A stretch of 64,000 bases of DNA from Treponema sp. GTDB taxonomy: Bacteria > Spirochaetota > Spirochaetia > Treponematales > Treponemataceae. This document shows, piece after piece, positions 19,146 to 20,474 of the stretch (its first letter is position 1; the number at the start of each line of letters is the position of its first letter). The notes under the pieces were generated by a model. It was not told where the DNA came from. It worked only from the letters and a program-made list of their open reading frames with translations, and made no database searches. The translations under genes and the position numbers were made by a program. Location: the NCBI GenBank assembly GCA_017550685.1, contig JAFZOJ010000121.1, forward strand, positions 2,046-66,045, in the 5' to 3' direction.

Positions 19146-19667
19146 TTGAAACTACAGCTCAGTAAAACAGACATTGTACTCACTTCCATAATTGCAGCAC
19201 TGCTTTTAGTAATCTTAAGCGGAACAATAATCGGTCTTGTTTCAAAAAAAGGCAGCCCCGGAAAAAACCTGCGCGATGCAGACCCGGAGCCTACTCCCCG
19301 CGAAATTGAAAACCTGAATAAGCATTCGGACAACAAAATTGCAGCTTTTACAGGCCTTGGAACCATAAGATGCATTACCGCACCGGAGCAGGATTCAAAA
19401 CAGGAAGTGAATGTCGGAACTGCAGTTGTAATTACTCCGTGGCTGGCCTACCCCCAGGATGACACAGTTTTCTTTGAAGAGCTGGCCCGCAAGCGCATAT
19501 TGATTACAGGCATTTTTACAAATTATTTTTCTACAAGAACCAAGCTTACTCTTCTTTCCATGAACGAAGACACGATCAAGCAGGAGCTTATGGATCAGAT
19601 AAACGCCCAGATGTCTCTTGGGAAAATTTCGGCCATTTATTTAACGGATTATATTTTTATTGAATAA
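19146..19667 (+). CDS. single-pass membrane protein, FliL-like (flagellar basal-body associated)
   Basis: 173 aa with a TTG start. N-terminal TM (IVLTSIIAALLLVILSGTIIGLV). The C-terminal layout resembles spirochaete FliL (...ELMDQINAQMSLGKISAIYLTDYIF). The assignment is tentative. Confidence 0.5.
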   Translation: MKLQLSKTDIVLTSIIAALLLVILSGTIIGLVSKKGSPGKNLRDADPEPTPREIENLNKHSDNKIAAFTGLGTIRCITAPEQDSKQEVNVGTAVVITPWLAYPQDDTVFFEELARKRILITGIFTNYFSTRTKLTLLSMNEDTIKQELMDQINAQMSLGKISAIYLTDYIFIE

Positions 19668-19731
19668 GATTGTCGGGTCAAGCCCGACAATGACAAAACA
19701 ATCTGTCATTACCGGGCTTGACCCGGTAATC
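19668..19731. repeat. two family-1 hairpins in opposite orientation between convergent genes
   Basis: GATTGTCGGGTCAAGCCCGACAATGACA (19668..19695) and TGTCATTACCGGGCTTGACCCGGTAATC (19704..19731). Each touches the stop codon of the gene it follows. Confidence 0.9.
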
Positions 19732-20474
19732 TAAATCAAAGAATAAAGCAACCACAACATAAGCAGATGTAGAGGATAAAATACGTAGAAAAACCATTTG
19801 TGAAAAGGGGCTCGGGAACCGGGTTCGCCATTGTAAAGGTAAAGCACAGGCACAAATAAAAAGAGCCCCAGCTGCCATAATTCACTGTACCACTCTATTC
19901 CTTTGGCTGGAAGGAAAAGACAGCTTAATGCATTCATAAGAATTACAATCAGACAATAAACCAGCACAAGCCATAATGGTTTTTCCCTGAACTTATAAAA
20001 GCAGATAACCATGAGCGGACCAAAAAAGCCCCAGTCGCAGTAACAGGAAAGCGCAAACAGCACAAGTATTATAAAGAACTTGAAATATCCTTTAAGTTTG
20101 CAATCCAGCACACACAGAATGGCAAAACTAATAAGCAGAACAAAAAGCATGTTAAAATCTGGAGTGAGCAGACTGTTCTTATGAGCCAGTGCATAAGGAA
20201 TCTGGGAAATCACTGCAAAAATTGCAAGCCGCAACGCATATTTTTTCCTGGAACGGGTATAAATATATCCTTCTGTAAGGAAAAAACACATGATTGGAGC
20301 AGTCAGGCGGCCTAAAACCCTGAGAGTAACATAAAGCGCCATGCCCCAGGCTGAAGACATAAAAAAACCGCCAAAGAGCATCCCTATGTGGTCAAGGAGC
20401 ATGGCGGTTATTGCAATGTATTTTAGTTGTGTTCTGTTCAAACTATAACTGAACTCCAGTACGGATTTTTTCAT
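19731..20474 (-). CDS. TraX-family membrane protein
   Basis: ORF 19731..20567 trimmed to ATG 20474 (MKKSVLEFSYSLNRTQLKYIAITAMLLDHIGMLF, the TraX signature). Polytopic. Overlaps the thyX 3' end by 32 nt, and a TTG at 20440 is an alternative start. Confidence 0.7.
   Translation of the reverse strand: MKKSVLEFSYSLNRTQLKYIAITAMLLDHIGMLFGGFFMSSAWGMALYVTLRVLGRLTAPIMCFFLTEGYIYTRSRKKYALRLAIFAVISQIPYALAHKNSLLTPDFNMLFVLLISFAILCVLDCKLKGYFKFFIILVLFALSCYCDWGFFGPLMVICFYKFREKPLWLVLVYCLIVILMNALSCLFLPAKGIEWYSELWQLGLFLFVPVLYLYNGEPGSRAPFHKWFFYVFYPLHLLMLWLLYSLI

Follow-up and report, generated by a model that had tools for sequence, protein, structure and literature searches.

A dispersed hairpin repeat of Treponema as a probable Ssn-related motif of a GIY-YIG nuclease, with oriented copies close to stop codons

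The 64-kb stretch of Treponema sp. DNA considered here (contig JAFZOJ010000121.1 of assembly GCA_017550685.1; hereafter the window) carries a dispersed 28-nt hairpin repeat and, bracketed by two of its copies, a gene encoding a small GIY-YIG nuclease. Judging from its sequence and surroundings, the hairpin is very probably the Treponema version of the Ssn-related motif (SRM), which co-evolves with an Ssn-family GIY-YIG nuclease. A search of the window with the tolerant pattern G-ATT-NN-CGGG-TCAAG-CCCG-NN-AAT-GACA gave 13 matches to the TCAAG-loop hairpin, against 0.01 expected from shuffles. Two of them (27934 and 53196) are degenerate, and variants are additionally found at 32347-32372 and 61341-61432. 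One strand reads TGTCATT-stem-loop-stem-AATC in all 11 non-degenerate copies. The copies are about evenly divided between the two strands, replication-related strand bias having been considered, and all of them except one degenerate copy lie outside confidently called genes. The copies and the nuclease gene are as follows, d being the distance in nt from the stop codon to the hairpin.

19668..19695, plus strand: SRM hairpin GATTGTCGGG-TCAAG-CCCGACAATGACA, at d=0 from the TAA of the FliL-like open reading frame (ORF) 19146-19667; left half of a tail-to-tail (+,-) doublet
19704..19731, minus strand: SRM copy whose stem is compensated (ACCGGG/CCCGGT) and whose first G (19731) completes the TAG of TraX (d=-1)
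27934..27961, plus strand: degenerate SRM copy with 4 substitutions, beside a copy of a second repeat family and within the N-terminus of a called glycoside hydrolase family 2 (GH2) ORF
31010..31037, plus strand: SRM copy at d=1 from the purC TAA (31006-31008)
31085..31112, minus strand: SRM copy with stem CCCGCG/CGCGGG, which matches the published search string; the plus strand reads TGTCATT..AATC and then TTTTT
32347..32372, minus strand: SRM variant GATTCCGAA-ACGAG-TTCGGAATGACA, with unchanged feet and a different stem and loop, just ahead of a gene at 32377
53160..53187, plus strand: SRM copy whose first G completes the prfA TAG (d=-1); first of a three-copy cluster that occupies most of the prfA-prmC spacer
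53196..53223, plus strand: degenerate SRM copy of the prfA-prmC cluster
53224..53251, minus strand: SRM copy without T-run that ends the prfA-prmC cluster, the prmC ribosome-binding site lying 7 nt further
56175..56202, minus strand: SRM copy followed on the plus strand by eight T; top terminator-like match after relA/spoT
56243..56270, minus strand: SRM copy, left inverted flank of the ssn gene
56314..56601, plus strand: ssn gene for a single-domain GIY-YIG nuclease of 95 aa with homology to neisserial SsnA (Pfam GIY-YIG only, E=5e-17)
56604..56631, plus strand: SRM copy, right inverted flank of ssn, at d=2 from the ssn TGA (56599-56601)
57023..57092: head-to-head (-,+) SRM pair with a 14-nt spacer; the ends are arranged as in the ssn-flanking pair, and the pair is gene-less, resembling a miniature inverted-repeat transposable element
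59628..59672, minus strand: disrupted SRM copy at d=0 from the phosphohexomutase TAA (59675-59673), consisting of GATTGTCGGG, part of a second palindromic repeat and then GCGACAATGAC
61341..61432, plus strand: three tandem hairpins of a related type, (G/A)ATGC-stem-loop-stem-GCAT-GACA, upstream of a gene at 61455

An earlier note on this DNA had pointed out that the hairpin begins at or within 3 nt of the stop codon of six unrelated genes. The six stop codons and hairpin starts lie exactly where it placed them (d = 0, -1, 1, -1, 2 and 0 for the FliL-like gene, TraX, purC, prfA, the GIY-YIG gene and the phosphohexomutase gene), and the identities of the six upstream genes agree with a Pfam search. 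Two amendments are needed. Only five of the six hairpins are intact; at 59672, an unrelated 22-bp palindrome separates the left arm from GCGACAATGAC. Furthermore, the six genes are not all foreign to the repeat, as the GIY-YIG gene encodes the very nuclease family to which the repeat belongs. The first two stops are joined by the sequence TAA-GATTGTCGGGTCAAGCCCGACAATGACA-aaacaatc-TGTCATTACCGGGCTTGACCCGGTAATC-TA (19665-19733).

The ssn gene, whose true start is at 56314, is the sole GIY-YIG gene of the window. Its protein has 2757 homologs. Residues Y7, Y18, R28, H32 and E65 are invariant, the tyrosines and the glutamate being equivalent to the published Y6, Y17 and E64. The protein is 48% identical (E=4e-26) to a homolog from N. 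gonorrhoeae that is flanked by the repeat called NTS. NCBIfam and PDB sequence searches with the window protein returned nothing informative.

The Ssn family was described as a group of single-domain GIY-YIG proteins of about 94 aa, corresponding to CDD cd10448 (Chenal et al., Nat Commun 2025; PMC11893778). SsnA from N. meningitidis and three homologs bind their repeat as single-stranded DNA (ssDNA) only, recognize one strand and cut it a few nt 5' of the repeat, and Ssn enzymes do not bind RNA (PMC11893778). The neisserial repeat NTS (CGTCATTCCCGCGMAVGCGGGAATCYRG) was generalised as SRMs, which occur near 71% of the ssn homologs and are flanked by HGTCWY 5' of the palindrome and by a C immediately 3' of it; this C is the most critical base for binding, and three bases upstream of the palindrome govern cleavage (PMC11893778). 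The NTS-ssnA-NTS layout was likened to an insertion sequence (IS) and to repetitive extragenic palindromes (REPs) with their associated tyrosine transposases (RAYTs), and Ssn modulates transformation in Neisseria (PMC11893778). That founding paper left open how SRMs spread and what they cost or bring to their host (PMC11893778); its main text makes no mention of Treponema, spirochaetes, stop codons or half-site tandem arrays.

In the window, the hairpins at 56243-56270 (minus) and 56604-56631 (plus) bracket ssn (56314-56601) in a hairpin(-)-ssn-hairpin(+) layout. Another Treponema species carries this bracketed layout at one stable chromosomal locus (10 samples, L117-L126). Two alphaproteobacterial metagenome-assembled genomes (L023, L043) encode 50%-identical homologs, the hairpins forming tight terminal inverted repeats of ~30 bp. 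Further homologs were obtained by tblastn against plasmid-collection records, whose flanks were then read (L225-L233). Inverted hairpins bracket ssn in Rhizobium, Azospirillum, Sinorhizobium, N. gonorrhoeae, Aeromonas, Planktothrix, Spirosoma and Novosphingobium; in these eight taxa, the stem and loop are taxon-specific and the feet, GGAT(T/C)...(A/G)ATGAC, are common. In Photobacterium (L229), hairpin copies lie downstream of ssn only. With the window included, a GIY-YIG gene is bracketed by repeats in 12 taxa, and the repeat that flanks ssn in Neisseria is the well-known dRS3-containing element.

Several ssn homologs lie, with their hairpins, within gene pairs or operons that are conserved apart from them: between sufB and sufC in Azospirillum (L226), between gltA and lpxB in Sinorhizobium (L227), between genes for an MmeI-type enzyme and for DrmA of a DISARM system in Planktothrix (L230) and between two glycoside hydrolase genes in Spirosoma (L231). 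Many of the contigs carrying ssn homologs are very short, which is consistent with repeats breaking assemblies.

The Treponema system resembles the neisserial Ssn/NTS system in its single-domain GIY-YIG protein of ~95 aa with identical catalytic residues, in the bracketing of the gene by inverted hairpin repeats of ~28 nt, in the oriented non-palindromic flanks, (C/T)GTCAT and ATC, found at opposite ends of the repeat, and in the presence of numerous, often clustered intergenic copies. It differs by its stem and loop (ATTNNCGGG/TCAAG here, ATTCCCGC/N4-5 in Neisseria) and by an A-run/T-run flank that, in the Treponema lineage, makes one orientation terminator-like.

The repeat itself is shared by distant bacteria. 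The exact 27-nt core ATTNNCGGGTCAAGCCCGNNAATGACA, looked for in one genome per species, was present at more than 116 loci in Treponema, other Spirochaetales, many Alphaproteobacteria, Patescibacteria, Chloroflexi, Fibrobacter and others. Among the matches listed, the carriers range from 29% to 73% G+C and belong to at least 6 phyla, and the 5' flank reads (A/C)TGG-ATT in most phyla against NAG-ATT in Treponema. The presence of one core in Treponema, many Alphaproteobacteria and other phyla points to horizontal spread or very strong constraint. The hairpin folds at -9.7 kcal/mol (z=-6.2). Of 125 copies (among the matches listed), 119 have complementary bases at the two free stem positions, with 8 pair types and against 36% expected; by this covariation, the stem pairing is under selection, and the conserved loop and flanks point to recognition by a protein. 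At gathering thresholds, Rfam matched only tRNA and signal recognition particle RNA in the window and has no family for the hairpin; literature matches to the raw repeat sequences GGGTCAAGCCC, GTCATTGCGAG and CTCGCAATGAC were primers and unrelated items only.

The conserved positions correspond to those known from the characterised enzymes. The critical C stands opposite the G of GATT, and the GAC of AATGACA represents the three bases that govern cleavage; the non-degenerate window copies carry the oriented SRM flanks and keep their stem pairing through compensatory changes. This correspondence with the binding and cleavage positions, together with the stem covariation, would therefore account for the conservation of the whole 28 nt from Treponema to Alphaproteobacteria. 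One result argues against the assignment: the published SRM string HGTCWYN(0-2)YYVSBRHN(0-5)WNVSBRGN(0-2)RNCYNB, hand-built from 29 genomes (PMC11893778), matches only 2 of the 13 window copies (stem ATTCCC), the others failing at two pyrimidine-restricted stem positions. The assignment to the family is therefore based on architecture, flanks and protein homology, and the SRM type of the window is partly outside the published search space. On these grounds, this is a new Treponema member of the system described in 2025, with an SRM type in common with Alphaproteobacteria. A previously unexplained dispersed Treponema repeat and a 'hypothetical' GIY-YIG gene are thereby placed in the Ssn/SRM system, which is extended to gut and rumen spirochaetes. 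As the published degenerate string misses most copies of the window SRM type, this also matters for SRM counts.

By analogy with the four Ssn enzymes, the window protein would bind ssDNA reading TGTCATT-stem-CTTGA-stem-AATC, a predicted substrate that carries TGTCATTGYCGGGCTTGACCCGRCAATC. It would cut a few nt 5' of TGTCATT and ignore duplex DNA, RNA and the complementary strand. In the ssn-flanking (-,+) layout and in the gene-less pair 57023-57092, each end would be cut just beyond the repeat, the two cuts lying on opposite strands, in a transposon-like manner. In the tail-to-tail (+,-) doublets found at stop codons, cleavage would take place in the central spacer, at a distance from the genes.

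The view of the earlier note that the hairpin is a dispersed and oriented repeat lying non-randomly near stop codons is borne out by statistics of the distance to the stop, which reveal an enrichment both in the window and in independent Treponema-type loci. Under a null model placing copies uniformly in non-coding DNA, in either orientation, and with adjacency taken as d=-1..2 nt from an ORF stop, half of the strict window copies (5/10) are adjacent, against 1.9% expected (p=6e-7). Of the 31 copies in the 30 independent loci, 3 are adjacent, where 0.7% would be expected (p=1.3e-3); within 5 nt of a stop, these loci have 7 copies in sense and 1 in antisense. Stop adjacency and orientation bias are therefore real and are replicated, more weakly, outside the window. 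A generic SRM finder applied to 410 kb of related Treponema contigs returned 2 strict copies only, too few for adjacency statistics. Elsewhere, stop adjacency concerns 1 of 96 alphaproteobacterial copies (among the matches listed) and none of 37 copies in 200 kb of N. gonorrhoeae, though 15 of these 37 carry CTAG-ATT. Stop adjacency is thus lineage-specific.

It had also been noticed that copies in the opposite orientation tend to come second and carry T-runs, and both traits are seen in the copy map and in a scan for terminator-like sites. The 53-61.5 kb region has its strongest terminator-like sites in the copies reading TGTCATT..AATC and then 5-8 T, which lie 35-124 nt from stop codons. In the stop-flush orientation, the stem is followed by AAUGACA, without U-run. 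Like intrinsic terminators, the opposite-orientation copies at 56179, 56247 and 57027 consist of a GC-rich stem-loop and then a U-run; unlike them, the stop-flush orientation has no U-run, and the loop and flanks are conserved far beyond the needs of a terminator. Tail-to-tail doublets (FliL/TraX, purC, prfA) provide four of the six stop cases and expose the GATT end on both sides. The FliL/TraX doublet (19665-19735) folds as a single long ssDNA hairpin of -25.6 kcal/mol.

A comparison of orthologous gene ends, proposed as a means to define the empty site and any target duplication, gave mixed results and recovered neither. It is informative about the stops themselves. The C-terminal residue of the FliL-like protein is constant in all relatives with a complete gene, retrieved with the neighbouring HflX gene, and relatives with an identical PurC protein conserve the TAA with no hairpin after it. 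By these sequences, both genes have native stop codons. An origin of the stop in the element itself, by truncation of the gene, was rejected for the two, as their C-termini equal those of hairpin-free relatives.

In hairpin-free relatives, the FliL-like gene and TraX converge with an overlap of 9-26 nt or a gap of 16-23 nt. The gap in the window is 63 nt and is wholly occupied by the tail-to-tail doublet; because the doublet fills the entire gap, both stops are necessarily flush with it. In other lineages (L148, L198), other SRM subfamilies lie 2-4 nt after the FliL-like stop and represent independent landings, the native spacer from this stop to a conserved promoter-like element being ~16 nt. 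At the operonic prfA-prmC junction, two related contigs show a 24-nt spacer, TAGATTGTCGGG followed by ACAAGGAGAGACCAT, which keeps the left arm of the first hairpin and ends at the prmC ribosome-binding site.

Relative to window positions 53160-53251, L129, L237 and L238 display an 86-bp deletion that starts at the loop of the first hairpin and stops 4 nt beyond the third. It leaves a TAGATTGCGGG-type left arm (TAGATTGTCGGG) joined to the prmC ribosome-binding site, with CAAG microhomology at both ends. The 24-nt spacer was considered as an empty site and rejected, the retained left arm and the CAAG microhomology marking it as a deletion remnant. Synteny breaks exactly at the SRM that follows purC (window 31006-31300 compared with L135-L140). 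In relatives with an identical purC, this gene converges on purB and an SRM lies 1 nt (L140) or 15 nt (L135) from the purB stop; in the window, a gene for a sugar-binding protein comes after purC. Look-ups of the phosphohexomutase and HflX genes for empty sites gave matches from the window strain only, and no TA/TAA target duplication was seen at the window copies. Upstream of prfA, a gene of the PD-(D/E)XK 'transposase' family (PF12784, 51162-52004) is present in the window and in L128 and absent from the related strain L129, and hence is a strain-variable insertion.

Overall, the best explanation, and one that we hold to be reasonably likely, is that the hairpin is the SRM of an Ssn nuclease and that its stop adjacency is mainly a by-product of tight spacers and orientation-dependent selection. 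Taken alone, the claim that the adjacency is mainly such a by-product and not a stop-codon signal stands evenly in the balance. Repeats would accumulate in spacers that are natively 0-20 nt long, such as those of overlapping convergent genes and operon junctions, where only copies between the stop codon and the next functional element would survive. The repeat's own 5' A-G can overlap the stop (TAA-G, TA-G). The opposite orientation, whose T-run makes it behave like an intrinsic terminator, would therefore be confined to places further downstream or to where transcription units end, and tail-to-tail doublets would automatically put the GATT end toward both neighbouring genes. We infer this account of tight spacers plus selection, and several observations weigh against it. 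About 180 further non-coding bases lie downstream of purC, and the copy is still 1 nt from the stop. The distance from stop to hairpin differs by 14 nt between two purB relatives, so that it can drift. The opposite-orientation copy 53224-53251 lies within the prfA-prmC operon, though without T-run. No true empty site was recovered among the orthologous sites compared, and the strong orientation bias calls for caution. The missing clean empty site, the flush purC copy and the orientation bias therefore leave some room for a target preference, and less for a role of the RNA.

A target preference, which we consider unlikely, would mean that insertion of the repeat, or of a doublet, puts the GATT end directly 3' of a target that is A-rich or resembles TAA/TAG. 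IS200/IS605 elements similarly insert 3' of a fixed tetranucleotide, and stop codons would be the first suitable sites after a gene. The exact distances favour it (d=-1 to 2 nt in the six window cases; -1, -1, -1 and 1 in independent loci), as do the 7:1 sense bias within 5 nt of a stop, the landings of different SRM subfamilies 2-4 nt after the FliL-like stop, the presence of only A's between stop and G in every near-stop case and the IS-like layout pointed out for NTS-ssnA-NTS (PMC11893778). The site-specific insertion suggested by the earlier note is nevertheless not established. The base before A-G is T in only 9 of 30 copies, which is about background; ~75% of the copies in independent loci are away from stops; no target duplication is visible at the window copies and no clean empty site was found; and adjacency is nearly or wholly missing from the alphaproteobacterial (1/96) and gonococcal (0/37) copies, the latter despite CTAG-ATT in 15 of them. 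In addition, GIY-YIG nucleases hydrolyse DNA and are not known for strand transfer, which counts against targeted insertion. A function at the RNA level appears less probable still. Stop-flush copies would then have been co-opted as 3'-proximal mRNA hairpins that protect from 3' exonucleases, mark a processing site or modulate translation termination of the upstream gene, the last effect being one reported for stop-near REPs of E. coli. A stable, GC-rich stem of 9 bp is indeed transcribed straight after six stop codons, its orientation follows a rule relative to the upstream gene, and the resemblance of T-run copies to intrinsic terminators implies effects on the transcript in one orientation. 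Selection for a 3'-end RNA structure, the other suggestion of the earlier note, is however not needed to explain the conservation. The loop and flanks, beyond pairing, are identical across phyla and conserved in different gene contexts; copies oriented with and against transcription are about equally numerous; Rfam holds no matching family; the hairpin is dispensable, since it is absent from the purC and FliL-like ends of relatives and the prfA cluster is mostly deleted in a strain variant; and the characterised Ssn enzymes bind ssDNA and not RNA (PMC11893778).

The inverted doublets and intergenic clusters of short extragenic palindromes also recall REP doublets forming hairpins (REPINs) and bacterial interspersed mosaic elements (BIMEs). 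It is very improbable that the repeat is a classical REP/REPIN mobilised by a RAYT, i.e. an IS200/IS605-type Y1 HUH transposase, with the GIY-YIG gene as a bystander. The repeat-bracketed gene encodes a GIY-YIG protein in 12 taxa, a scan of 20 window proteins gave no Y1_Tnp domain, and GTAG is the typical tetranucleotide at the foot of REPs, whereas the feet are here G-ATT / AAT-GACA, with an oriented TGTC/GACA flank. The likeness to the REP/REPIN-RAYT systems and BIMEs of enterobacteria and Pseudomonas is one of organisation: extragenic palindromes in inverted doublets, clusters between the genes of operons, a single-copy and vertically stable enzyme gene flanked by its own repeats and a hairpin recognised on ssDNA. 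The enzyme is a hydrolytic GIY-YIG nuclease in one case and an HUH Y1 transposase in the other, and Ssn is not known to transpose. The stop-flush copies also resemble the stop-near REPs of E. coli, which are stable extragenic hairpins placed directly after the stop, in sense to the upstream gene; Liang, Rudd and Deutscher reportedly found in 2015 that E. coli REPs within ~15 nt of a stop reduce the translation of the upstream gene. The repeat family is different and lacks this adjacency in the other lineages that carry SRMs. Finally, it is conceivable, if rather doubtful, that Treponema SRMs obey a positional grammar so far unreported in the family. The non-cleaved-strand orientation would be flush with stops and the cleaved-strand orientation would lie 35-124 nt downstream with its U-run, as a result of spread targeted to sites resembling stop codons or of co-option as gene-end punctuation (mRNA 3' hairpin plus terminator). 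The SRM of an Ssn nuclease, held near stops mostly by tight spacers and selection, remains our preferred reading, and the stop-flush placement is a new but modest positional observation.

Full SRM copies are accompanied by half-site tandem arrays, and a second repeat family is interspersed with them.

31032..31103: SRM half-site TGTCATTCCCGCGCTTGAC with a spacer, repeated in tandem (26 nt x 2.8) and closed by a full copy; 2 compared with 4 units between strains
56123..56174, plus strand: two 26-nt half-site units (TGTCATTGCC plus 16 nt) ahead of a full copy
56621..56748, plus strand: SRM half-site CGACAATGACA with a spacer, repeated in tandem (24 nt x 5.3); 5.3 compared with ~1 units between strains
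5694, 5955, 8215, 14828, 27983, 54238, 57101, 59600 and 59637: copies of the second repeat, 26 nt each

The strain-variable half-site arrays next to full copies might be traces of cutting by Ssn followed by repair. A half-site array, made of 23-nt units, also occurs next to ssn in Planktothrix. Together with the stop-flush oriented placement, these arrays offer leads on the spread of SRMs and on their cost and benefit for the host.

The second repeat, GGCCCTTCGAGAGCCTCAGGGACCCC, is palindromic and unrelated to the SRM (9 copies of 26 nt, 0 expected). It is often located 10-50 nt from an SRM copy, interrupts the SRM at 59672 and has its own half-site tandem array (54177-54250, 21 nt x 3.5). A variant of it is also found after purC in relatives (L135).

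For annotation, SRM hairpins matter as sequences that break metagenome assemblies, cause spurious ORF extensions and serve as points of deletion or rearrangement. In the GH2 ORF 26406-28166 (minus strand), a degenerate SRM and a second repeat (27934-28008) fall within the first ~80 called codons, and this ORF overlaps the upstream major facilitator superfamily gene by 30 nt; the true GH2 start is probably downstream of both repeats. The three hairpins at 61341-61432 lie in a divergent intergenic region and have the TCAAG-like loop and the GACA tail in common with the main repeat, with a different foot.

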